From NCBI GenBank assembly GCA_002397465.1, contig DHAP01000002.1, positions 1,509 to 65,508 on the forward strand: 64,000 nucleotides of DNA, read 5' to 3'. Below are positions 9,263-56,634 of this stretch, piece after piece. Position numbers and translations under genes: made by a program. Position 1 is the first letter of the stretch; every line of letters starts with the position of its first letter. Source of the DNA: Bacillales bacterium UBA4951 (lineage in GTDB: Bacteria > Bacillota_I > Bacilli_A > RFN20 > CAG-826). A model generated the notes under the pieces. It saw nothing but the letters and a program-made list of their open reading frames with translations, made no database searches and had not been told where the DNA came from.

Positions 9263-10317
9263 GATTCGGCCCTCTTTTTCGAGAAGATGATATAAAGGAA
9301 GAACGGTCCGCCGATGAGCGAGGTGATCGCGCCGACTGGAAGCGCGCTTCCATTGCCGATGGCTCTGGAAACGGTGTCGGCCAAAACAACCAAGATGATG
9401 CCGCCAAGGATTGAGGCCGGGATCAAGAAACGGTGATCCTGCCCCAGTATCTTTTTCATGACATGCGGGGCGATGATGCCGACGAAACCGATGACGCCAA
9501 GGAAAGAGACACAGACGGCGGTAATCAAACTAGCGAGGAGCAAGGAGACAAAACGGAAGGGCTCAACCGAAACGCCGACGCTGCGGGCGACCTCGTCGCC
9601 GCTCAATAAGGCGTTGTATTTCCAAGACGAGAACATGAAGTAGCAAGATGAGACAAAGACCACGACGGCCATTATCAAGTCGCTGGAGTAAGTGGCTCTT
9701 CCCAAGTCACCGAAAGTCCAGATGACGGCAGCAGAGAGACCGACGTCGGTGGCGTAGTATTGGAGGATGGTGGTGGCCGCGCTCCAGATGGAGCCGATGG
9801 CCACGCCAGCCAAGACGACCGCGTTAGGTGAGAAGGAACGAAGTTTGCACAAGCCAAGTATCAACAAGACGGAAACGGCCGAGAAAAGGAAAGCGACCAA
9901 AGAGGTCGAGTATAAATTGATGCCTGAGGTGTAGGAAGATAAGTTGTTGCCGGTTGAGAGATAACCGCCGGCCGCGATGACTATCGAGACGTTGGCGCCG
10001 AAGACGGCGGCGTTAGAGACGCCTAAAGTCGAAGGGGAGGCCATGGCATTTCCCAAACTCGTTTGCATGATAAGGCCCGAGACGGCTAAGCCAGCTCCTG
10101 CGATGATGGCGGCCAAGATCCTTGGGATCCTGATGTTCCAGATGATGCGGATGTTGGAATCGCTGCCTTGCTTGAACAAAGCGGCAAAACCATCACTCAA
10201 ACTCATGTTGGACGAGCCGACGAAGAGACAAGCCACCGACAAAAAAAGCGCTATGATGAACAAGATCAATAGAATCAGCCATTTACGTTTTACGCTCAAC
10301 TGTTTGCTTTCTGACAT
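9256..10317 (-). CDS. FecCD-family ABC transporter permease
   Basis: 353 aa, about 9-10 TM. Typical FecCD blocks (RIPRILAAIIAGAGLAVSG, GVIGFVGIIAPH). Confidence 0.9.
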   Translation of the reverse strand: MSESKQLSVKRKWLILLILFIIALFLSVACLFVGSSNMSLSDGFAALFKQGSDSNIRIIWNIRIPRILAAIIAGAGLAVSGLIMQTSLGNAMASPSTLGVSNAAVFGANVSIVIAAGGYLSTGNNLSSYTSGINLYSTSLVAFLFSAVSVLLILGLCKLRSFSPNAVVLAGVAIGSIWSAATTILQYYATDVGLSAAVIWTFGDLGRATYSSDLIMAVVVFVSSCYFMFSSWKYNALLSGDEVARSVGVSVEPFRFVSLLLASLITAVCVSFLGVIGFVGIIAPHVMKKILGQDHRFLIPASILGGIILVVLADTVSRAIGNGSALPVGAITSLIGGPFFLYIIFSKKRAESC

Positions 10318-14320: not shown

Positions 14321-15140
14321 GGATGAACCTCTTTCTTAATATCGTGGAGCCGGATGAGAGAATGGTCCGATAGGCGTCTCCGCTGTAATCGGATAGATCA
14401 AAGACAAGCTCGATTCTTAAAGGCAAGTGGCCGAGGCATTTGACTCTTCTGGCATCGCCGGGGACCAATCCTTTTTCTTTAAGGGATTCGACGTTAACAA
14501 CTTCTCCCTTCGAGTAACTCTTTTCGATGTTCTCAAGGTTGACCGGGTATTCCTTTCCTTTTGGATAAGGGACCTCCTTGAGCTTTGGCACACGTTTGAC
14601 GGGTTTGGCTTTTCTCTTCTTCCTCTTGACTGGCTTGGTTTTGGCCTTAGCTGGAGCTTCTTCAACTACTGGGGCAACCACTGGGGCTACCGTCTCTTCG
14701 ACTGCAGGAGCAGTTTCTTCAATAATGGGTGTTGTCTCTTTGACTTCAGGGGCAGTTTCAACGACAGAGGGGGCGGCTTCAGCAACGACTGGAGCCTCTT
14801 CTATTTTCACTGGTGTCTCTTCAACAACGGGCGCAGCAACTGGAGCAACGACTGGCGCAATGGCCTTGGCTTTATTCTTGGCGTTAATGCCCATGATGAT
14901 GAAGACCAATGAGGTAGCCAAAAGGATTCCCATGGCGACGGGACCATAGACGCTGGAACCGAATCCAAGGGCTATAAGAGGGATAAAACTATGCAAATCC
15001 CTCTTATTCTTCTTGTCTTCGTATTCTTTTTTGCATTGGACGTAAAAGAAGATTGAGGCCAATAGGACGAGGAGGGACAAGAGATCTCCTCCGATCCATA
15101 AGAGGGAAGAGGCATCGATGCTAGAGGTAAGGATGATCAT
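14307..15140 (-). CDS. membrane protein with Pro/Val/Glu-rich repeat linker and uL15-like C-terminal domain
   Basis: 277 aa. It has N-terminal TM helices and an (A/E)PVV/EET repeat tract. The C-terminal KEYPVNLENIEKSYSKGEVVNVESLKEKGLVPGDARRVKCLGHL...SGDAYRTILSSGS tracks the C-terminal half of bacterial ribosomal protein L15. ATGA overlap with the upstream gene. Confidence 0.6.
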   Translation of the reverse strand: MIILTSSIDASSLLWIGGDLLSLLVLLASIFFYVQCKKEYEDKKNKRDLHSFIPLIALGFGSSVYGPVAMGILLATSLVFIIMGINAKNKAKAIAPVVAPVAAPVVEETPVKIEEAPVVAEAAPSVVETAPEVKETTPIIEETAPAVEETVAPVVAPVVEEAPAKAKTKPVKRKKRKAKPVKRVPKLKEVPYPKGKEYPVNLENIEKSYSKGEVVNVESLKEKGLVPGDARRVKCLGHLPLRIELVFDLSDYSGDAYRTILSSGSTILRKRFIHVHG

Positions 15141-46823: not shown

Positions 46824-46853
46824 TTGTAAAAATCCTCTTTTAGCGGGTATAAT
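46824..46853 (+). promoter_or_regulatory. candidate promoter for tRNA-Leu
   Basis: TTGTAA (46824-46829), 18 nt, then TATAAT (46848-46853). The -10 ends 10 nt before the tRNA 5' end. Confidence 0.45.
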
Positions 46854-46863
46854 CTTTACCCGT

Positions 46864-46947
46864 GGGCCCGTGGCGGAATGGCAGACGCGTTAGACTTAGG
46901 ATCTAATAGGGCAACCTGTGCAAGTTCAAGTCTTGTCGGGCCCACCA
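46864..46947 (+). tRNA. tRNA-Leu (anticodon UAG), type II with long variable arm, CCA encoded
   Basis: Manual fold. Acceptor GGGCCCG/CGGGCCC. D arm GCG...CGC. Anticodon stem TTAGA/TCTAA with loop CTTAGGA. Variable arm AGG/CCT. T arm GCAAG-TTCAAGT-CTTGT. The 3' end is ACCA. Confidence 0.9.
46895..46947. repeat. attL-type direct repeat (3' 53 nt of tRNA-Leu)
   Basis: Identical base-for-base to 56537-56589. Confidence 0.85.
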
Positions 46948-47012: not shown

Positions 47013-48308
47013 TCAGACCGTGAGACATCCGACGGGGATGACATAAACTCCATCTGTGCGCCGGTAGGCCATTCCTTCGTCTGTGATAACGGCCAAAAAA
47101 CTAGGAAGGGGCAATTTTTCGTTCGGGAATTTCAAATTATGCTCTTGGTAAAGAGGTTTAAAGGCCAAAAGTCCTTTTGCCCCGTCCTCGATGAACTTTG
47201 ACCCACATTTGCATTCAAATAATGCATAGCGGCCATCAGGCAAATGGATGGTAAAATCCGCTTCTAAGCTATAGCGATCATGGTATTGCCGCAGTTCACC
47301 ACCGAGCATTTCTGCATACACGCCAAGTTCTTTGCCACAAAGACACTCAAAGAAAAATCCCCGCGATTTCGGGTCATTTTCCAAGTCCCCCGGCCCGATG
47401 CCTAAAGCGGCGCAGGCGATTGCAGGGTCAAAGAACTCTTTTTTAGAAAGGCTTCTTATCGCAGTCTTGCTGCGGATACTCGGTGAATAGGAAGGGACTT
47501 CCTTGATGACATAAAGTTTTTGGAGGCCATCGTAATAATCATAAAAAGTGGTCGCCGACAGCGAGGAATCGTTCGCATTGACATCCGCAATGATGGTCTT
47601 ATTTTCGACATAGGTGGAAATGTTTCTGGCAAAGGAACGCAAAATTGATCTTGTGGTCTCGGGAGAAAGGTCCTTTCCGGTCGCCTCTTGGATGTCACTT
47701 TCCGCGATGCTGGCCAAAGCTTGCTTTCCGAAAATGGAAGGATCGGCGTATTCTCTCGTGAATGCGGCTGGGAATCCGCCCAAAACGATTTGCTTGCTGA
47801 TGGCTTGCCGGTCCAACGGCGAGATTGCCCCAATGTTTTGCTCAGGGTTGGCAAATAGAGAAGCCAAGGAGACTTCGCAATTAGATAAATGTGATTCGGC
47901 AAAAGAAAGAGTGGACATAGTCACTTTGGCGATTCGCATGCTGCCCGTGTGAATGGTTGTTCCTTTTTTGGGGGCTCTGGAACCCGTCAAAATATAGAGG
48001 TTCCCTTTATTCTCTTTATCAATTGAAGTTTTTGCGGCATCCCAAACTTCGGGATATTTCTGCCATTCATCAACGAGATGGGGGCGTTTGCCTTCCAAGA
48101 ATAAAGCCGGATTGGTGGCGGCAATTGCCTGGTAAGAACTTTCTTTGCTTTTATCGCCGAAATAAATAGCGCTTTCGGCAAGCTGTTCAGCGGTGGTTGT
48201 CTTTCCGCACCACTTAGGGCCCCGAATGAGCACTGCCCCAAATGTTTTCAGCAAGGAAGACAGCTGTTTATCAGCAAGTCTTGGGATGTAGTTATCGATT
48301 GTTTTCAT
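47013..48308 (-). CDS. AAA-type ATP-binding protein with DUF4143-like C-terminal nuclease-fold domain
   Basis: 431 aa. Walker A GPKWCGKTT, Walker B-like HLVDEWQ, and a C-terminal block (EADFTIHLPDGRYALFECKCG) typical of AAA_14/DUF4143 proteins. Confidence 0.8.
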   Translation of the reverse strand: MKTIDNYIPRLADKQLSSLLKTFGAVLIRGPKWCGKTTTAEQLAESAIYFGDKSKESSYQAIAATNPALFLEGKRPHLVDEWQKYPEVWDAAKTSIDKENKGNLYILTGSRAPKKGTTIHTGSMRIAKVTMSTLSFAESHLSNCEVSLASLFANPEQNIGAISPLDRQAISKQIVLGGFPAAFTREYADPSIFGKQALASIAESDIQEATGKDLSPETTRSILRSFARNISTYVENKTIIADVNANDSSLSATTFYDYYDGLQKLYVIKEVPSYSPSIRSKTAIRSLSKKEFFDPAIACAALGIGPGDLENDPKSRGFFFECLCGKELGVYAEMLGGELRQYHDRYSLEADFTIHLPDGRYALFECKCGSKFIEDGAKGLLAFKPLYQEHNLKFPNEKLPLPSFLAVITDEGMAYRRTDGVYVIPVGCLTV

Positions 48309-48330: not shown

Positions 48331-48756
48331 TTGTTTCGTTCAATAGTAAACGAATATATTTGCGGTATTTCGGCGAATATATTTGCTGTATTCGGACGAA
48401 GATATTTGCGCTGCCTCCCGCAGGTGGTGAAACGGATCGTGCTTGACGGGACCCATTTCCTTTCATTCCAATCGGGACCGGCTGAGCGCTATGTGACGCT
48501 CTTCCGCTTCGAGAGCAAGGACCTCTATGAGAGCGCCAAACTTTTCCGTCAGGACAAAGAGGACCGTGAGATTGAAGGGGATGGCGTGGTCGGCAAGGAG
48601 TGGCTCATCGATGTCAGGGATGCCATCAAAACAGAGACGTCAAAACTGGGAAAGCATCCTTCGGAGGACGAGGCCGGCGCAGCCATCGAATCCGTTTTCA
48701 AGAAGCTCACCCCAGGCGTAGACAAAGTTCGAACCGATCCCCGGGGGAAGCCATAG
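48331..48756 (+). CDS. hypothetical ORF; the real start and coding status are uncertain
   Basis: 141-aa ORF. Its N-terminus runs through the iterons. The GC-richer C-terminal 100 aa look protein-like, but I recognise no motif. Confidence 0.25.
   Translation: MFRSIVNEYICGISANIFAVFGRRYLRCLPQVVKRIVLDGTHFLSFQSGPAERYVTLFRFESKDLYESAKLFRQDKEDREIEGDGVVGKEWLIDVRDAIKTETSKLGKHPSEDEAGAAIESVFKKLTPGVDKVRTDPRGKP
48351..48419. repeat. three tandem 23-bp iteron-like repeats
   Basis: CGAATATATTTGCGGTATTTCGG / CGAATATATTTGCTGTATTCGGA / CGAAGATATTTGCGCTGCCTCCC. They are head-to-tail and begin 43 nt upstream of the ATPase start codon. Confidence 0.6.
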
Positions 48757-48848: not shown

Positions 48849-49100
48849 GCGGACGGGCGGTGATGCGGACGAAGAAAAAGTTTAGGAAGCGTCGGTGTTT
48901 TGACGCTTGTAACCCTGTTCCTTTCCTTGATAAAATGCTTATGGGAACGGAGGCCGCTCCCAGACGAACCGGCCCACGTTTCTCCGAAGCCCGCAAAAGG
49001 GCATTCGGCCCCTTAGACTTAGCGGTCCGCGTTTCGTCCGCATTCCGTCCGCACCCTGGCTTCCGCCAAAGGGAACGGAAGGGTACGCCCTGCTGCGGAC
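48849..49100. repeat. cluster of six GTCCGC/GCGGAC hexamers with nested hairpin (arm-type site candidate)
   Basis: GCGGAC at 48849, 48865 and 49095. GTCCGC at 49025, 49036 and 49047. The outer stem GTCCGCA/TGCGGAC (49047-49053 / 49094-49100) encloses CTTCCG/CGGAAG (49060-49065 / 49076-49081). Confidence 0.55.
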
Positions 49101-49180
49101 AAATAAGAATCCCTCGCCGATTACGAGACATTCTTCCCCAAAAGGAAATGAAAGGACACACCCTTTCAAACCGCTAAAAA

Positions 49181-49236
49181 GACTTAGGATCCTTTGGTTA
49201 ACAGCCATGCAGGTTCAAATCCTGTCAGGCGCACCA
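49181..49236 (+). other. heterologous tRNA-Leu 3'-half remnant (internal att-like site)
   Basis: GACTTAGGATC (anticodon loop) is identical to the resident tRNA-Leu. A different variable arm follows, then T arm GCAGG-TTCAAAT-CCTGT and acceptor CAGGCGC-ACCA. No 5' half is present. Confidence 0.7.
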
Positions 49237-49248
49237 AAACAAGCAAAA

Positions 49249-49276
49249 CTCCGGCTTCGACTTGCCGGAGTTTTTT
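49249..49276 (+). terminator. intrinsic terminator following the tRNA-half remnant
   Basis: CTCCGGC (49249-49255) pairs with GCCGGAG (49264-49270), followed by TTTTTT. Confidence 0.7.
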
Positions 49277-49290
49277 CATGAGACTTGGTT

Positions 49291-49544
49291 TTATAGATTC
49301 CTAACTGGCTCTGCCGTGAGAAACGTCACGGTTTTGGCTGCAATGCGCAACAGTTCCTTTTGCTCTTTCGAAAGTTTGCCCTCCGACAGCGGCGTCTCAT
49401 ACTCTCGGAAAATATACTCGGTAATTTCACTGATGTTGTCGTCGTTCAACTCGTTGATTTTCATTTCGGGGAATATTTTGCTTTCTAAAAAACGATCGAT
49501 GTCGCTAGGCAGGGGTAGTTAATGCTCAGTTTGTTTTTGACCAT
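49291..49544 (-). pseudogene. frameshifted member of a small-protein family (paralog of 49985-50233)
   Basis: MVKNKLSINYP, then a frame change at a CCCC run, then LPSDIDRFLESKIFPEMKINELNDDNISEITEYIFREYETPLSEGKLSKEQKELLRIAAKTVTFL. It aligns along its length with the 82-aa paralog. Confidence 0.5.
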
Positions 49545-49559
49545 GCTCTTTTGCTCTTT

Positions 49560-49850
49560 TTAAAAATCCCCTCTGGCACTGTTGATGGTTTTGTTGATCG
49601 AGGCTGCCATTTCGAGGTATTGGGATTCTTTTTTTGTAAGTTTTTTCGCATCAAATTTGTCCGCATAAGAAATTTCGACATTTGTGCAAAAGTCAACGAT
49701 TTCAAGATAGTTGTCTTGAGTGATTTTGGAAATACCAAGTTTCGGCATGATCTCCGTGTTTAAAAAATTCATTTGCTCTGTTGAAAAACTTAAATATTTA
49801 GCCAATTCATCGGAAATAATTTTGCCCATTGTTGCCTTTCTTCTTTCCAT
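49560..49850 (-). CDS. small protein, divergent member of the same family
   Basis: 96 aa (or 89 aa from ATG 49829, which follows a purine-rich RBS). It shares the pattern FL..(I/M).P.(M/L)....(I/L)..DN...I..(F/Y)......LSK/TKKE...L..A...I. Confidence 0.5.
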   Translation of the reverse strand: MERRKATMGKIISDELAKYLSFSTEQMNFLNTEIMPKLGISKITQDNYLEIVDFCTNVEISYADKFDAKKLTKKESQYLEMAASINKTINSARGDF

Positions 49851-49984
49851 AATTGTGTCTCTTTGATGAGCTCTCTAAAACGGTAGTGTCTAAACGTTTT
49901 CAGTATCACGACTCGTTGAGCGAATGTCCGTTACCGCATTTCTGCTAATGCACTTCGCTTTTGTAGGAAGGCGGGGGATCTTCA

Positions 49985-50233
49985 TCATTGGTAGGCTTTT
50001 GTTGATAATTCCGTGATTGCGTTGGAAGCAAGATCGAGGAGCCTCTTCGATTCCTTCGATAGATGTTTGTCTTGGCTAAGCGGATTTTCGTAATTGTCGG
50101 CGATGAACTCGATGACGCTTTCGATGTTGTCATCATCGATTTCAGTTAAAGTCATTTTTCCGGAAACGTATTGGTCCAGAAAAGAAACGACTTCTTTTGA
50201 AGGGGTGTATTTGTTGCTGAGATTGAATTTCAT
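49985..50233 (-). CDS. small protein, 82 aa, unknown family (intact paralog)
   Basis: GAGGAGG RBS. MKFNLSNKYTPSKEVVSFLDQYVSGKMTLTEIDDDNIESVIEFIADNYENPLSQDKHLSKESKRLLDLASNAITEL. Confidence 0.6.
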   Translation of the reverse strand: MKFNLSNKYTPSKEVVSFLDQYVSGKMTLTEIDDDNIESVIEFIADNYENPLSQDKHLSKESKRLLDLASNAITELSTKAYQ

Positions 50234-50484
50234 TTGCTTTTCCTCCTCAATAACTTACTTAATAGTTTAGACGAGAAATGCCAAGCGTTGGTAACAAAAT
50301 TATCTTTCGTTAGATGACAATCTCAACGCAACATAACTCTTTAATTTCGATTAATTCTGAAGTTTTTCATTTTTTGTTGCGTTGAAGTTGACCACATTTA
50401 CGCGTAATATTCGATATTATGATAATGCTTTACAGCGATTATTTGCTAATGATACAATAGAATATACCAACGGAGGTTCTTCCT

Positions 50485-51099
50485 ATGAAAAAAAGACTTG
50501 TGTCCTATATTCTTATCACTGTTTTAGCTTTTGGTGGTATGTTAGGCATTACTGCAGTTCGCAACAACGGTTTCATTAATAATGTCCACGCCGACAAAAC
50601 TGAAGGCTTATCTTCGATTGCCTTTACAATTGCTAAAGTTGGCACCTATGCTTATCAAGCAGACGGGATGCATGATACTCGCGATAATTTGAGTCCAAAC
50701 AAATCGATACTTGATGAAATGAACAACAATAACGGCTTGGTAACATCAATAAGTAATTTGCAAACTGTTTATCCTGGGAATTCATCAGGTGGTCCTGGTG
50801 CTGCATCTGACGCCTTAAAATTTGGTGGTTCTAGCGCCGTTGGAACATTGACTTTATCAACTCAACACGTAATTCACAAAGTTGTTATTAGATTTGCTAC
50901 TTGGTCTGCTACTAAGAATTCACAACTTAAAGTAAACGACGTGGCTGGTGTCGCTGTTGCAAGACAAGCTTACGATGACGAGACATTTACTTTATCGACA
51001 CCAAGTGATTCAATAACTATTGCCTCCCTATATCCATCGAGCGGAGACCGTCGGCTTTTAATCAGTCGAATCGATTTATATCATTATTGCAGTATATAA
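50485..51099 (+). CDS. secreted or membrane-anchored protein of unknown function
   Basis: 204 aa with an N-terminal signal/anchor (MKKRLVSYILITVLAFGGMLGITAV). GGAGG lies upstream of the ATG. Confidence 0.6.
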   Translation: MKKRLVSYILITVLAFGGMLGITAVRNNGFINNVHADKTEGLSSIAFTIAKVGTYAYQADGMHDTRDNLSPNKSILDEMNNNNGLVTSISNLQTVYPGNSSGGPGAASDALKFGGSSAVGTLTLSTQHVIHKVVIRFATWSATKNSQLKVNDVAGVAVARQAYDDETFTLSTPSDSITIASLYPSSGDRRLLISRIDLYHYCSI

Positions 51100-51463
51100 A
51101 CTTGCAATCAAGTGAATTTCGGTTCTGGTAAATCCGTCGTGGAATACAAAAAAAGTGTCCACGTTGTATTTAACAGAATCTGAATTAACTGGGGAGGGGC
51201 TGTTAGAACCAATTATCAAGGCTTTTTTTGTGCTTAAAACGCTAAAAATAGGCCATTTAATACTGATTTCTATGATTTTCGGTGATAGTTAATGGTTTTC
51301 AGGGCAAAAAATAGGGGGAAATATATACTATTGAAAACCTACTAGTTGAACGATTAGGGGGCGGGGTTGCACGATTGATCGATTACACGAATATTTGTAT
51401 TCTTTGACGCAACCTTTGCCAAAATTGTCTTTAATTACTCGCTAAAAAATAGCGAAAAATGAA

Positions 51464-51493
51464 CAAAAAACGACCTAAATTGGTCGTTTTTTG
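51464..51493. terminator. bidirectional intrinsic terminator
   Basis: ACGACC (51470-51475) pairs with GGTCGT (51482-51487), flanked by an A-run and a T-run. Confidence 0.5.
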
Positions 51494-51526
51494 TTAATTT
51501 TGATTATGAGTTCGATTAGCTAATGC

Positions 51527-52750
51527 TCAGTTCGAGGGGTTTTGCCAAAATAGATTATTTTCATTGTAAGATAGCGAACCGACTTTTTCGATGATAAACC
51601 CTCCGAGTTCGAAGTTTGGAAGATCATATAAATCCTTTTTGAAGCCCAGTTTGAGGCGATGGCCATTCTCTCGTGCATTGATAACGCCAGCGAGGCGATC
51701 AAGGGTTTTAAGATGAAAGACATTGGGAACTTTATCAAACCGGGGACAGTAGTAATGCGAGTTCATGCATTCTTGCGAACAACCTTCATAGTCAGCGTTT
51801 AGATAGGCTTTTAGACATTGCGGGTTTCTTCTTAACATTGTTTTAATCTTCCTTACATCGTTATCATCATCTAGTCCTTCAAGAGCTTTAATCAATGTTT
51901 CCTGATAGTTATTGTCATTAAGTTCTTCGTCGCTTACGACAAGACCTAGACTCTTCTTAAGCGCGGCTTTGATGTGATATTTATCAGGGACATAGCGGGC
52001 TTTGCAGACGAGGATTTTATCAGGAGCGTGCTGAATATAACTAGCTAGGTCACCCGAGATATACACCTCGTCGTCTAACGATACTTTGTACTTATCTCTT
52101 AATACCAGATTTAGCCTTTTTAACAAGAGCGATAGATTAACATTTGCAAGCAAAGTCCGGCTTTGAAGCACTCTTTTTTCTCCGTAGTGGCGAACGCCCT
52201 TGAAGATGGTGCACGTAAAGAGTTTCTTTTTGTGCTTATTCTCTTTGACGTGAACGAACTTCTCGTCGAGCTGAACGTGAATCGCAGCCTCATTGCTGAA
52301 AAAGACATGATGGTCTTCGATGATGAATTCACTATTTCGAATCAGACGACAAACCGTCGATTTGGAAATGGGATAATCCTCGTTTGATCCATAGCGGCCG
52401 GCTTTGGCGTAGGACATCTCGGAGGCGGCTTCGATGAGCTTGATTTTGACATCGTACATTAGCTTGTTCCTTTTAGGAATAGCTAAGAAGGCATCGAGTA
52501 GGTACAAGTAGCGATGCTCTATCTCGTCATAGTAGTAGCGGCGGTTAAAAGAAAGCATTCCAATCGATGTGAGAATTGAACGCGGCTTTATCTTAACAAT
52601 TCTTAAATATTTTGGCCTTCGACTGGCGAGGCTTATATCAATTCTTTCAAGGACCTTAGCAAGCTCAGATAATCCGCTTATTTTGATATCTTTAATGTAA
52701 TCGACAACAAATTGTTCAAAGGAAGTGGTTGAGGAAGGTATAATGTCCAT
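51527..52750 (-). CDS. ISLre2-family (UPF0236-like) transposase
   Basis: 407 aa. Characteristic blocks KPRSILTSIGMLSFNRRYYYDE, YLLDAFLAIP, VQLDEKFVHV, ISGDLASYIQ and PDKYHIKAAL. Confidence 0.65.
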   Translation of the reverse strand: MDIIPSSTTSFEQFVVDYIKDIKISGLSELAKVLERIDISLASRRPKYLRIVKIKPRSILTSIGMLSFNRRYYYDEIEHRYLYLLDAFLAIPKRNKLMYDVKIKLIEAASEMSYAKAGRYGSNEDYPISKSTVCRLIRNSEFIIEDHHVFFSNEAAIHVQLDEKFVHVKENKHKKKLFTCTIFKGVRHYGEKRVLQSRTLLANVNLSLLLKRLNLVLRDKYKVSLDDEVYISGDLASYIQHAPDKILVCKARYVPDKYHIKAALKKSLGLVVSDEELNDNNYQETLIKALEGLDDDNDVRKIKTMLRRNPQCLKAYLNADYEGCSQECMNSHYYCPRFDKVPNVFHLKTLDRLAGVINARENGHRLKLGFKKDLYDLPNFELGGFIIEKVGSLSYNENNLFWQNPSN

Positions 52751-52917
52751 GGGAGTTCTCCGTATTCTGTCGGCAAAACAATTATAGCGAACTCCCTTTT
52801 TATATGGTTACCTACCTTTATGAAACGTAATCATACATTTGACAACATTTGCATTTAATCAAGGTACGGCTTATATTGGATTTATAGCAAAAAGAGTTGA
52901 AGAATGAATAGTGACTA

Positions 52918-54286
52918 ACTCATTGCAACAACTTAGGGGCGATGAAGTTTCAAAGAACAACTCCTGCTGCTTCTGATTAGGTATTTCTTGCTTTACCTAA
53001 TTAGTGATGGTTTAAGGCAGACATCCTTGCTGGGGACGGCCTTAATGCCGATGGCGTTCATAAAGGTAACGCCGAACCTCTCTACCGTAAGTTGGTAGGG
53101 AGTTTTATTTTTGTTGGACTTTCTAATGTAGGAATTGATGTGCGAAAACAGGCGATTGACTTTCTCCTGAGTCAAGAAATCTAAGCTCTTGCCCTTCATA
53201 ATTACGTAGCGAATGAATTCATGATTTCTCTCGCAGGCGGCTTTGTCCGTCGAGCGGTAAGGATTGGTGAAAAACATCCTGGTGATGACGGCTCCCAATT
53301 CGTTGATCTCCAACTCGTGGAAGCGAGCGAACTCGGGACCATTATCGCTTAAGTTAATTGGAAAGATCGCCTCGTATTCGCTTCCTAATATCTCTTGAAG
53401 TTTGCGTATCCTGGCCACGACCGACCGCGCGCTTCCCTTGCTGATCAGATAGCCGAATTGAAATCGTGTCGAAGGCAGCGTGATCGTCAAGATCGCTTTT
53501 CTATCATCGATCTTTCCTTCGACTGAATCGTATTGCCATGGATTGAGATCAGGATAGGCTTTAACATAGTTAAGATAATCGGAATGCGTTCTTCCCAGCA
53601 TTCGTTCGACATTGACGATCTTCTTTTTGGCATAGTCATACTTATGCTTGTAGCGGACGTATCGGGGTAGTTCATGAGCTCTGACACTCAGATAGCCTTT
53701 ATAGATGTATCTCCGTATCGTCCTTTCCGAGCAAAGCGACTGGAGCAAAGAACTCGCGACATAGAGATGGTGAAGGGATTGGCCCCTTTCTTTAATCCCG
53801 TGAATGAGCTCCTGATCGATCGCGGTTAAATCATTTGCATCAATCCGCTTAAAAACGCGCGGCTCAACCCTTTTCTTTTGCGATGAAGACTCGGCGTCGA
53901 CACAGTCATAATATCTTTTTAGATTGCTGCATATCGAAGCGTTCTCGCAGCCGTTGCACGTATATGGAAACCGTTTCCATCTACGGCAGCGAAAAGCATT
54001 AAAATCAGGGCATTCCCCGCGGACAAAAGGCGGCTTATTTAGACAAAGCTTTGAACAATGATAACACGTATGACGGCACGGCTTATAATAGCAGTTATTA
54101 ATAATTTCTCGATAGATGGTCGAACGAGACTTGCCTAGCAAACGAGAGCATTGCTGCAAAGAATAGCCCTTAGCGATTGCTGCTTGTAAATTGATACGAT
54201 CATCATGCATTAATCGTACTTTAGACATAAGATTCTCCTTTCTAGCAGCAGGAGACATCATTATAAATCAATTTGTTGCAACGACT
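52918..54286 (-). mobile_element. IS30-family insertion sequence (approximate ends)
   Basis: Terminal imperfect inverted repeats ACTCATTGCAACAA (52918-52931) and TTGTTGCAACGACT (54273-54286). An inner inverted 10-mer CTCCTGCTGC/GCAGCAGGAG. One transposase ORF fills the element. Confidence 0.55.
52993..54228 (-). CDS. IS30-family transposase
   Basis: N-terminal HTH (GYSLQQCSRLLGKSRSTIYREI) and a DDE integrase-core C-terminus (TLPSTRF...SDNGPEF...RNHEFIR). Start at ATG 54228 after AAGGAGA. Confidence 0.85.
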   Translation of the reverse strand: MSKVRLMHDDRINLQAAIAKGYSLQQCSRLLGKSRSTIYREIINNCYYKPCRHTCYHCSKLCLNKPPFVRGECPDFNAFRCRRWKRFPYTCNGCENASICSNLKRYYDCVDAESSSQKKRVEPRVFKRIDANDLTAIDQELIHGIKERGQSLHHLYVASSLLQSLCSERTIRRYIYKGYLSVRAHELPRYVRYKHKYDYAKKKIVNVERMLGRTHSDYLNYVKAYPDLNPWQYDSVEGKIDDRKAILTITLPSTRFQFGYLISKGSARSVVARIRKLQEILGSEYEAIFPINLSDNGPEFARFHELEINELGAVITRMFFTNPYRSTDKAACERNHEFIRYVIMKGKSLDFLTQEKVNRLFSHINSYIRKSNKNKTPYQLTVERFGVTFMNAIGIKAVPSKDVCLKPSLIR

Positions 54287-54535
54287 CTGGCATCTATCGA
54301 CAAAATTATCTTTCGGGTTGATGCAGGTCAGTGTTTTGTTGTCCGATAATCGTCGATAGGAAGGTCTTCCTTTAATATCAAAAACTACGGGTGTTATTTG
54401 AAGGGGTTTCTTTCTTAGATTATAGCCAACCTCGCCCTTGCTGACCAAACGAAGCTTCATCCTTTCGATAGCATGATAACCGACTTTGTAGTGGTTAACC
54501 TCGTAAGGCTTCCTTGGGTAATATTTCTTAGTCAT
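54242..54535 (-). CDS. small DUF4258-like (toxin-like) protein whose 3' end runs into the IS30 element
   Basis: 97 aa. GYHAIERMKLR resembles the HA.ERM..R motif of DUF4258 proteins. About the last 15 codons lie inside the IS30 inverted repeat. Confidence 0.3.
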   Translation of the reverse strand: MTKKYYPRKPYEVNHYKVGYHAIERMKLRLVSKGEVGYNLRKKPLQITPVVFDIKGRPSYRRLSDNKTLTCINPKDNFVDRCQSRCNKLIYNDVSCC

Positions 54536-54695
54536 GGTTTCCTCCTATTGCTCTACAGGCAAACAATAAAAGAAACGATACCCATAAAATAGAGAACATC
54601 CAACAAATCTTTTAGTAGACAATATTTACCATAAAATCAAATGAACATATAAACTTTTAAACAAATTAGGTAGACAAAAGGTATACTATTATTAT

Positions 54696-55508
54696 ATGGA
54701 CCCCGATTCCTCAGACAAATATCGAGTGAGGATTTCCCGTTACTGCTTCTTGATCCTGGTCAACGACTGTCAGGCTTTTGGCTGCGTGAACAGGAAGGGA
54801 GAAGCGAACCTTTGCGGATTCCTGAACCGCCTTATTCCGGTTCTGGTGGATCAAAGGGAGTCTAGGCAGGCTCTGATTCACGACAAGCTCTTGGAGACCG
54901 GGCTCATCAAAGAGGCGAAGAATCGCTATGAGAGTGCCGCCAATAATTATTTGGACACGATTTTCGACCGGGTTTATTTTGCCGACTACTTGTCGGGGCG
55001 CCTGACGGAGGCCATCTGGATCCGGCCCAATCAGCAAACCGGGCTTCTTTTCGAAACGATCGTGGGCTCCATCATCAAGAAAAGCCAAATAGACTTGAGC
55101 AAATACCTGAGGAGTTTGATCGTCGAATATTGCTCCGTTCCGCAGTTTCGCAGGGAACAGCTCTTTTTCAAGAAGGAAATCCATGTTATCGAATCGGCGA
55201 TAGAACACGGGAATTCTTTGATGATCAGCGAGAACAAAGCGAAAAAAGATGTCATACCCATCACGATGGCGGCCGAGTACACCTTCGATCAAAGGAATTA
55301 TCTTCTGGCTTTAGAAAATCGGGAAGATGGGAAAATCCTTTCCTTGCCGATTGAAAAATTCACTCCTTTGTTCGAAAGCGATCCCGCTGTCGTTCCGACC
55401 CAAAACCAACTCGATTTCGTCGAAGAACTGATTAATGATGGCGCCTTTTGGGAGAAAGAAGAGTTTGAAGGCAAGGAGGATGCAGCACGTGTTTTGGAAC
55501 AAAAATAG
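54696..55508 (+). CDS. hypothetical protein, 270 aa, possible WYL-like C-terminal region
   Basis: Long ORF with protein-like composition. The segment VIPITMAAEYTFDQRNYLLALENREDGKILSLPIEKF loosely follows the WYL-domain pattern. Confidence 0.55.
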   Translation: MDPDSSDKYRVRISRYCFLILVNDCQAFGCVNRKGEANLCGFLNRLIPVLVDQRESRQALIHDKLLETGLIKEAKNRYESAANNYLDTIFDRVYFADYLSGRLTEAIWIRPNQQTGLLFETIVGSIIKKSQIDLSKYLRSLIVEYCSVPQFRREQLFFKKEIHVIESAIEHGNSLMISENKAKKDVIPITMAAEYTFDQRNYLLALENREDGKILSLPIEKFTPLFESDPAVVPTQNQLDFVEELINDGAFWEKEEFEGKEDAARVLEQK

Positions 55509-55685
55509 AAAAAAAGAGAAACCTTTGTCAAAAGAAAATAAGCGAAAACGGGAATGGGCCATCAGGAATTACTATAAAAAGAAAAGGGGCAAGTAGAATT
55601 CTCGTTGCCCGGGATGGTGATGTTCGTAAAAAGTAAGGCCACTTAAAATGTTTTTTCAGTTTTTGAATTTTCTGTCTAGGAGGAA

Positions 55686-56171
55686 TTGATGGACCCAAAT
55701 TTCAAACCTTTCAGAATCGGCGGCATCGAAGCGCTTGAACGCTATCCTTGCGGGAAGGCCATCGGCGAGAAAGGGAGAGCCAAAGTCTATTATCTCTGCC
55801 GCTGCCTTTCGTGCGGGAAACAATTTGTTCTCACCGGCGACGAACTCAATAAGAAACCCAAATCCTGCGGTTGCCTCAACCATTCCGGATTGCCGAACGA
55901 GGCCGTTTCCGCTTTTCCGGTAGTTGAGCGTTTGGTTGAGCATCGCCATAGCCAGCCGAGGGAAAACCCCAACAAAAACTCCCTATCCAGTCAGGTGGGG
56001 GTCTATTTCGACAAGGAAAAGCGTTTTTGGCGGGCGCAGATCGCCTGACGAGGGGAGCAAATCTCGTTCGGGTCGTACTCAAGCGAGGCCGAGGCGGCTG
56101 CGGCTCGAAAGGGCGCGATGCTTCTTTTTGATGCGATGCTCGGAGAAAAACTGAAAAATACAGATAACTAA
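55686..56171 (+). pseudogene. Cys4 zinc-ribbon + AP2-domain DNA-binding protein gene with one in-frame TGA
   Basis: YLCRCLSCGK...KSCGC, then GVYFDKEKRFWRAQIA-TGA-RGEQISFGSYSSEAEAAAARKGA. The stop at 56046-56048 falls inside the AP2 domain. The frame continues to TAA 56169-56171. Confidence 0.6.
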
Positions 56172-56366
56172 TCGGCATTTTCAGCGCCAAAGAATGTCGC
56201 TTGTTGTTTTCAAGGACAAACTTGCAAATCGAACTTGTTTTTCGCATCAGGTCAAATGGGCGGGAGATACATTTGTGTTGTGTGCTATGCTGTCTTGGGA
56301 GTGGAAGCCGTTCCCAAAACAGGCAGAACCGACAAGGCATCCCAGCCAAAACCACGTCGGAATCCT

Positions 56367-56454
56367 GTCCGCATTCCGTCCGCACTTGGTTCGCATTTGG
56401 CCCCCGTGAAGGAATACAAAAGATTCACATTGCTTACATTTCCTTCATGCGGAC
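56367..56454. repeat. second GTCCGC/GCGGAC hexamer and nested-hairpin arm, homologous to 49025-49100
   Basis: GTCCGCATTCCGTCCGCAC (56367-56385) is identical to 49036-49054. The outer stem GTCCGCA/TGCGGAC (56378-56384 / 56448-56454) encloses GAAGGAA/TTCCTTC (56408-56414 / 56440-56446). Confidence 0.55.
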
Positions 56455-56536
56455 AAACAAGAAACGCGGCCATAGACGGGTGAAATATTCACAAATAGGA
56501 CAGAAGAAAGCAAATCCTGCAGTTAGCCCCGCAAGT

Positions 56537-56589
56537 CTTAGGATCTAATAGGGCAACCTGTGCAAGTTCAAGTCTTGTCGGGCCCACCA
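56537..56589. repeat. attR-type direct repeat (displaced 3' half of tRNA-Leu)
   Basis: Identical to 46895-46947. No tRNA 5' half lies upstream. Confidence 0.85.
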
Positions 56590-56602
56590 AAACGCAAAAA
56601 AA

Positions 56603-56634
56603 GTCCAATCGGAAACGGTCGGGCTTTTTGTTTT
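56603..56634 (+). terminator. probable original tRNA-Leu terminator
   Basis: GTCCAATCG...CGGTCGGGC hairpin with one mismatch, followed by TTTTTGTTTT. Confidence 0.5.

Follow-up and report, generated by a model that had tools for sequence, protein, structure and literature searches.

Cis-mobilizable elements and their accretion are known from ICESt1 and ICESt3 of Streptococcus thermophilus. Genomic islands that split a tRNA gene restore it with a 3′ copy of their own, and the presence of several such fragments marks tandem arrays (Islander; Hudson et al. 2015, PMC4383910). Another relationship between element and target, tRNA-dependent lysogeny, has been shown experimentally in mycobacteriophages, and its authors suggest that it may be more widely spread (Guerrero-Bustamante and Hatfull 2024, PMC10865867). 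The cases described are actinobacteriophages such as Fionnbharth and Cluster L, with the Lactobacillus johnsonii prophage Lj965 cited as a possible further case (PMC10865867). Among the matches listed in a full-text search for the phrase tRNA-dependent lysogeny, titles and abstracts dealt with phages, and no integrative conjugative or mobilizable elements were seen in them.

We analyzed an island inserted at a tRNA-Leu gene in a 64-kb stretch of DNA (the window). Like the tandem islands of Islander, the array in the window has an intact tDNA at one end and direct repeats of the 3′ part at its seam and at its far end; it also shares with those arrays the anticodon-loop sublocation, the arm repeats, and an inner fragment that divides the array into modules. 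Unlike them, its inner fragment comes from a different tRNA-Leu than the resident one, and because neither module has an integrase, the Islander tandem rule (own fragment plus own integrase) would reject this array. The modules resemble the ICESt1/ICESt3 accretions in being att-bounded, in lacking an integrase of their own, and in lying in tandem at one site, and, judging from their sequence, their excision would, as for cis-mobilizable elements, require a cognate integrase provided in trans. They differ from ICESt1/ICESt3 in integrase family and target and in the heterologous tRNA half at their seam. Set against tRNA-dependent lysogeny, the window has an intact host tRNA and a broken carried tRNA, and the mechanism is visible only as a relic. 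We regard the feature under study as a probable relic inside a tandem tDNA island array, whose non-phage relatives share the two structural criteria of tRNA-dependent lysogeny.

A second tRNA-Leu 3′ half within a two-module island

The sole intact tRNA gene found in the 64-kb window by ARAGORN and Rfam is the resident tRNA-Leu(TAG), here called tRNA1 (positions 46864 to 46947, plus strand; Rfam score of 57.8 bits), which forms the left junction of the island. [quoted passage not shown] The 7-bp core CTTAGGA lies within tRNA1 at 46895 to 46901 on the plus strand. From anticodon loop to CCA, the 3′ part of tRNA1 is repeated in the same orientation at 56537 to 56589 (plus strand), where identical sequence forms the right junction, made up of the core and the native displaced tRNA1 3′ half; the native tRNA1 terminator follows at 56598 to 56630 (plus strand), and the same junction and flank are found in both haplotypes. 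A repeat of this kind is what integration of an island into a tRNA gene usually leaves behind, and we infer that the 3′ half now completing tRNA1 (46902 to 46947) is island derived.

The first-pass annotation had reported a second, nonidentical tRNA-Leu 3′ half with its own terminator inside the island, and this description is borne out. The fragment consists of the core CTTAGGA of the anticodon loop at 49183 to 49189, which is the inferred crossover site, and the anticodon-stem 3′ strand, variable arm, T arm, acceptor strand, and CCA at 49190 to 49236, followed by a terminator hairpin and T-run at 49245 to 49276 (hairpin at 49245 to 49274; −18.5 kcal/mol, z of −5.6), all on the plus strand. 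The match of its anticodon loop to that of the resident tRNA is exact: GACTTAGGATC at 49181 to 49191 is identical to 46893 to 46903. In the 64 kb, CTTAGGATC occurs three times (46895, 49183, and 56537), each time on the plus strand; the mean expected by chance is 0.58, and three copies were reached in 1 of 100 shuffles. The layout from 49190 to 49236 is that of a class II tRNA 3′ half, with stem strand, long variable arm, T arm (GCAGG-TTCAAAT-CCTGT), and acceptor strand (CAGGCGC) followed by ACCA.

Alignment with tRNA1 showed that the anticodon-stem 3′ strand, variable arm, T arm, and acceptor strand all differ, as the annotation had proposed for the last three. Its claim that the acceptor strand is incompatible with the resident 5′ strand also held: read from the sequences, a hybrid of the tRNA1 5′ half and the fragment pairs at 5 of 7 acceptor and 2 of 5 anticodon-stem positions, and ARAGORN called no tRNA in it. 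The A-run, hairpin, and T-run layout noted after the 56537 to 56589 copy recurs here, with hairpin/U-run terminators at equal relative positions after the fragment, after tRNA1, and after position 56589. The proposed folding check gave a mixed outcome. The Rfam tRNA model returned no truncated match at the fragment at an E value of ≤10, so its identification rests on identity to a complete tRNA elsewhere (tRNA2, below), but its match of 53 of 53 bases to that tRNA, which itself scores 55.9 bits, overrides the negative test. No 5′ half of tRNA2 is present in the 64-kb window, and no promoter able to serve the fragment was identified; the fragment is now most likely without function.

The sequence directly 5′ of each inner and right core forms an arm of about 240 to 280 bp of the P-arm type, arm A at 48900 to 49182 and arm B at 56295 to 56536 (both plus strand), ahead of the cores at 49183 and 56537. 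By eye, on an alignment, the two arms are ~60 to 65% alike, and they share an ordered set of features: the inverted repeat TGGGAnnGGAnGCCGnTCCCA, three GTCCGC-type repeats, GCGGACAAAnAAGAA, about 80 bp, and the core. In arm A, the inverted repeat lies at 48939 to 48962, the three GTCCGC repeats lie at 49025 to 49052, and GCGGACAAATAAGAA lies at 49094 to 49109. The claim that each module ends in a homologous GTCCGC arm is thus supported by this common order. The GTCCGC-type repeats are spaced at 11 bp, that is, one helical turn; the pattern GTCCGC-N5-GTCCGC occurs three times in the window, in the arms only, against a chance mean of 0.01. In every related arm examined, the phased GTCCGC repeats precede a CTTAGGA core of the same orientation by ~130 to 160 bp. 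They look like arm-type binding sites of a lambda-like tyrosine integrase, a putative assignment. The order of arm, 7-bp core, and tRNA 3′ half makes 49183 an attR-type junction.

Division of the island into two modules of 2.3 and 7.3 kb was likewise upheld, with 2.29 and 7.35 kb between cores, although 4.0 kb of the second (50310 to 54299) is a strain-specific insertion with two transposase genes. The cargo of module A is an ATPase gene (47013 to 48308, minus strand) with AAA_14 and DUF4143 domains by Pfam, which matches the PADLOC candidate defense family PDC-S01 (E value of 3e-46). Three repeats at 23-bp spacing upstream of this gene (48350 to 48410), earlier termed iterons, are more likely putative operators than replication iterons. 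The body of the second module (module B; 49277 to 56294) holds small open reading frames (ORFs) without a family, the insertion, a 270-amino-acid (aa) ORF, and a zinc-ribbon/AP2 ORF (55686 to 56171) with an in-frame TGA at about 56046 to 56048, and it holds no integrase. Recoding of that TGA was considered and rejected, as the long ORFs of the window read cleanly under table 11. The insertion itself encodes a 204-aa signal-peptide ORF, a UPF0236 transposase (51527 to 52750), and an IS30-like gene (52993 to 54261); it is absent from four same-species contigs (L004, L005, L009, and L035), and the two aligned blocks share 16 bp where they meet its ends.

No island ORF in the window matched Phage_integrase in Pfam, and tblastn of the window with full-length integrases of the family gave no match. 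The modules are bounded by recombination sites and are without integrase or transfer genes, which is the structure of cis-mobilizable elements; because both lack an integrase, the fragment is an inactive scar. Given a cognate integrase in trans, module B would be cleanly excised by recombination of the cores at 49183 and 56537. Both modules would be lost, with tRNA1 left intact, if the cores at 46895 and 56537 recombined, and exchange between 46895 and 49183 would give a nonfunctional hybrid tRNA.

The junction at 49183 is identical in five contigs (L002, L004, L005, L007, and L009), which makes an assembly artifact unlikely, and in a comparison of 20.9 kb the first of these showed 100% identity to the window. 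The earlier suggestion that either module might occur alone at tRNA-Leu found no case: both modules were together in 10 of 10 contig places listed among 12 contigs with the exact ATPase, in look-ups by protein identity that mostly return the same species. An empty site would read as intact tRNA1 followed by AAACGCAAAAAAAGTCC; none was present among the same-species contigs found via flanking proteins. Occupancy of the site does vary within the species, since other contigs have a different, 15.6-kb island between the same flanks.

The complete donor tRNA in the alternative haplotype and in other hosts

Look-up of the proteins encoded in the flanks recovered same-species contigs of two kinds, window type and alternative type. 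The alternative haplotype (L001, L003, L006, and L008) is 99.86% identical to the window up to position 46901, the last base of CTTAGGA in tRNA1, and diverges completely from there on. Beyond the core lies an arm of about 310 bp that contains four GCGGACA motifs and a single GTCCGC; it is followed, in this order, by a complete tRNA-Leu(TAG), a terminator, and the start of an AP2-type ORF. This tRNA, which we call tRNA2, lies at 14652 to 14737 of L001, is called Leu(tag) by ARAGORN, and scores 55.9 bits with Rfam. L001 and L011 together cover the entire alternative island of about 15.6 kb. At its right end stands an arm with 93.4% identity to arm B; the core and the tRNA1 3′ half follow, and behind them the chromosome continues as in the window. 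The host tRNA-Leu of the alternative haplotype thus remains split, without being rebuilt, and the locus has no intact tRNA-Leu(UAG) other than tRNA2; the window shows the reverse. Since arm B is only 93% identical to its counterpart while the flanks are more than 99% identical, the two haplotypes hold different members of one family, neither island being descended from the other. The integrase of the alternative haplotype is present as a C-terminal fragment only.

A group I intron or a split-tRNA gene was also considered for the interrupted host tRNA and rejected: the break falls after position 38, and the other half lies 9 to 16 kb away behind an arm, with an island between.

Between the two ends of the alternative island lie about 11 kb of housekeeping-looking genes (L001 15579 to 20882 and L011 1 to 5300), among them a nucleoside ABC transporter, a Bmp lipoprotein, CAT, NUDIX, uridine kinase, and MatE. 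A third haplotype of the species (L040) is 99.9% identical to the alternative one over 10.5 kb, diverges within the last ~60 bp of the integrase fragment (from about 10533), and continues with other cargo, including BrxA.

The search for a donor, proposed by the first-pass annotation, thus yielded a complete tRNA-Leu(UAG) gene: positions 49184 to 49236 of the window match 53 of 53 bases of tRNA2 as it occurs in L001, L021, L022, and L026 to L029. Over 54 nucleotides there is a single difference, at the first base of the loop, which is C in the window and T in tRNA2 (loop TTTAGGA, against the core CTTAGGA), and this sole difference places the exchange inside TTAGGATC. Read from the sequences, the acceptor stem of tRNA2 is perfect (GCGCCTG/CAGGCGC). 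The complete tRNA2 copies are followed by a terminator to which that of the fragment bears only a loose resemblance.

We scanned one genome per species (185,579 species), as well as metagenomes, with an exact pattern for the T arm and acceptor strand of tRNA2. The pattern was found in at least 2 of the 185,579 species genomes and in at least four metagenome contigs. Among the matches listed, every tRNA2 whose upstream sequence can be read sits inside such an island (two contigs start shortly before tRNA2, L021 doing so 25 bases before it, with tRNA2 from position 26), and none is a plain chromosomal tRNA2, in scans for exact matches that near-identical genes could escape. An exact-match scan of a viral contig collection for the fragment and tRNA2 gave no match. 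In the 2.08-Mb genome of a "Bacilli bacterium" (L022), a different host 5′ half, GCGGTCGTGGTGAAACTGGCAGACACGTGGGA, is cut right after CTTAGGA; the same arm, tRNA2, and terminator come next, with an AP2 fragment behind them. Three of the four metagenome contigs show yet a third host 5′ half and flank. The first 614 to 627 bp of the element are 95 to 97% identical among the three hosts, and their 3-kb upstream flanks have nothing in common except the tRNA half. The element that carries tRNA2 appears to be mobile. Of the idea that the fragment is the displaced 3′ end and terminator of a tRNA-Leu from elsewhere, the displacement stands; going by the exact-pattern scans, the donor is not an ordinary chromosomal gene but island cargo.

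Relatives that split the host tRNA-Leu gene and carry their own

Further loci of the family were found via AP2 homologues ~60% identical to the AP2 query from L029. In three of them (L041, L044, and L051), the order is a split host tRNA-Leu 5′ half, CTTAGGA, an arm of about 300 bp with GCGGAC repeats, a complete tRNA-Leu(TAG), a terminator, and an AP2 gene, and the carried tRNA-Leu(TAG) has yet other sequences. In all six loci compared (L001, L022, L029, L041, L044, and L051), the match to the host tRNA breaks off directly behind CTTAGGA, and a complete tRNA-Leu(tag) lies beside the left arm, 310 to 345 bp inside the left end of the element; of its carried tRNA, the window has only a 3′ half. 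Directly behind the carried tRNA-Leu of L029, L041, L044 (three copies), and L051 lie intact AP2 homologues of 154 to 180 aa. The AP2 gene is a hallmark of the family; its product may bind the arm repeats or set the direction of recombination. The AP2 ORF was also considered as the N-terminal domain of an integrase, which is ruled out by its being a stand-alone gene in the relatives and by the full-length integrase having its own N terminus.

That full-length integrase is encoded in L041. It is a 445-aa tyrosine integrase with SAM-like and catalytic domains, 72% identical to the fragment of the alternative haplotype, and beside it are an HTH_17 (xis-like) gene and conjugation-type genes (TraG-like, ArdC, and a primase-polymerase). 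Given these genes, at least some members of the family look like integrative conjugative elements. The parts of the elements that were examined showed no phage genes, and the cargo of several relatives includes defense genes (GmrSD, type I and type II restriction-modification, BrxA, and Fic/RelB).

A protein search for integrase homologues more than 60% identical returned genes that are all cut near the start of the catalytic domain (MxAYYGLRRE) and that lie in different neighborhoods; fragments of about 200 aa are found at L011 5866 to 6444, L023/L024 10001 to 10594, and L040 10001 to 10600. Of the close relatives found of the alternative-haplotype integrase, only the 445-aa gene of L041, reached via its AP2 neighborhood, is full length.

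[quoted passage not shown] They differ from it in that no phage genes were seen in the parts examined, in the conjugation genes of L041, in their defense cargo, in their Bacilli hosts, in the place of the carried tRNA beside the left arm, where a host promoter could read in, and in the reuse of carried tRNAs as targets.

Such reuse is seen in L044. Its 5′ half at 1728 to 1759 and 3′ half at 9877 to 9928 rejoin in silico to a valid tRNA-Leu(tag); a GCGGACA arm remnant precedes the 5′ half, a typical arm precedes the 3′ half, and a terminator and an AP2 gene follow the latter. The remnant before the rejoined tRNA and the terminator and AP2 gene after it show that the tRNA of an earlier element was split by a later one, which has its own tRNA at 2065 to 2148. 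In L050, an integrase-bearing element is joined via arm and core to the left arm of a neighbor.

In L047/L049, at about 9840 to 9890, an orphan tRNA-Leu(TAG) 3′ half (core, T arm, and CCA) is followed by a terminator and an AP2 gene, and no 5′ half was found within 20 kb of it. This orphan is a counterpart, in an unrelated genome, of the fragment in the window.

Origin of the fragment

The fragment at 49183 to 49236 is, in our judgment, probably the relic 3′ half of an island-borne tRNA2 that was cut by a later recombination and now marks the inner seam of a two-module tandem array. Under this explanation, a family of islands in uncultured Bacilli would use a tyrosine integrase to recombine in the 7-bp loop CTTAGGA of tRNA-Leu(UAG); the split host gene would not be rebuilt, and the island would bring a complete tRNA-Leu(UAG) followed by a terminator and an AP2-domain gene. 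With an anticodon loop that is nearly the same (TTTAGGA in tRNA2), the carried tRNA could itself serve as an attachment site. In the lineage of the window, a later recombination at the tRNA2 loop would have produced the order arm A, CTTAGGA, tRNA2 3′ half, and terminator, within a tandem array bounded on one side by the intact resident tRNA-Leu and on the other by the native displaced 3′ half of that gene, and loss of the integrase from both modules would have left the scar inactive. With the window island lacking an integrase and the alternative haplotype retaining only a fragment of one, recombination and the chemistry of crossover are deduced from the structure of the junctions. An event of the type seen in L044, in which a later element splits the tRNA of an earlier one, best explains the fragment.

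The main competitor is that module B was a restoring island, its attP bearing only the 3′ half of a chromosomal tRNA-Leu of its former host, and that it entered the right junction of module A. This is unlikely, yet it would produce the observed structure in two steps, it fits the standard model of islands carrying a 3′ tDNA segment (PMC4383910), and it agrees with a terminator after the fragment that is unlike that of the complete tRNA2 copies. Against it, no plain chromosomal tRNA2 was among the matches listed, an absence that is weak evidence given that the searches were for exact matches; outside the species (three host backgrounds), wherever the upstream sequence is visible, the complete gene lies in an island behind a split host tRNA; and module B was not found alone among the contigs with the exact ATPase. 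It is far less probable, and we consider it very nearly excluded, that the 3′ half of the resident tRNA-Leu was duplicated locally and then diverged in place. The 11-bp identity around the loop and the similar layout of tRNA end, A-rich stretch, and terminator would be expected of such a duplication, but the fragment is 100% identical to a functional tRNA in other hosts, and its differences from tRNA1 are compensatory, CAGGCGC pairing perfectly with GCGCCTG of tRNA2, which excludes random decay as their source. Chance resemblance or a chimeric assembly, for which the failure of Rfam to find a truncated tRNA at the site might be cited, is hardly credible in the face of 53 of 53 bases identical to a real tRNA, the same junction in five contigs, and a flanking arm with phased repeats beyond chance.

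With the fragment read as the relic of a tRNA2 half at an island seam, the order of events in the window lineage may be reconstructed in three ways, all of which yield the observed structure. Module A may have integrated in tRNA1 and rebuilt it, after which module B, with an attP starting at the tRNA2 3′ half, would have entered the right junction of A. Module B may instead have integrated with a complete tRNA2, which A then entered as in L044; a single deletion from the host core to the tRNA of A itself would finally have restored tRNA1. Or A may have entered the left junction of B, with deletion of the ~345 bp between direct cores (the arm and the tRNA2 5′ half). In favor of a once-complete tRNA2 in B are that tRNA2 was otherwise, among the matches listed, found only as a complete island gene and that the 3′ half is 100% identical while the terminator has diverged. 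Against it are the left end of module A, which is of a restoring design (core plus tRNA1 3′ half) present in no relative examined, and arm B, which is only 93% identical to its counterpart when the flanks exceed 99%.

The relatives raise a broader prospect, to which we give an even chance: an island relay in which each element splits the current tRNA-Leu(UAG) and installs its own copy, the next element targets that copy, stacks of orphan halves build up, and the host becomes dependent on the carried gene. Where the host gene is split, tRNA2 would be expressed and needed, and the carried copy is possibly read from the host promoter. If the carried tRNA were the only tRNA-Leu(UAG) of the cell, it would act as an addiction device that stabilizes the island. 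If true, the relay would extend tRNA-dependent lysogeny to nonphage integrative elements and add serial retargeting.

For annotation, the fragment should be recorded as a tRNA pseudogene marking an island seam and not as a tRNA gene. The use of a carried tRNA as the landing site of a later element accounts for heterologous tRNA halves within islands, and standard island finders, which expect fragments of the resident tRNA, would miss or misdelimit such arrays. The strategy of splitting the host tRNA and bringing a replacement, described experimentally only in 2024 and in mycobacteriophages, also shapes defense-gene islands in Bacilli.

Arm A also contains a promoter-like site at 48907 to 48936 (TTGTAA-18-TAAAAT with TG) that is similar in sequence and spacing to the one at 46824 to 46853, and the inverted repeat that follows it is loosely like a tRNA 5′ end. 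This part of arm A may therefore be the fossil remnant of a former tRNA promoter region.
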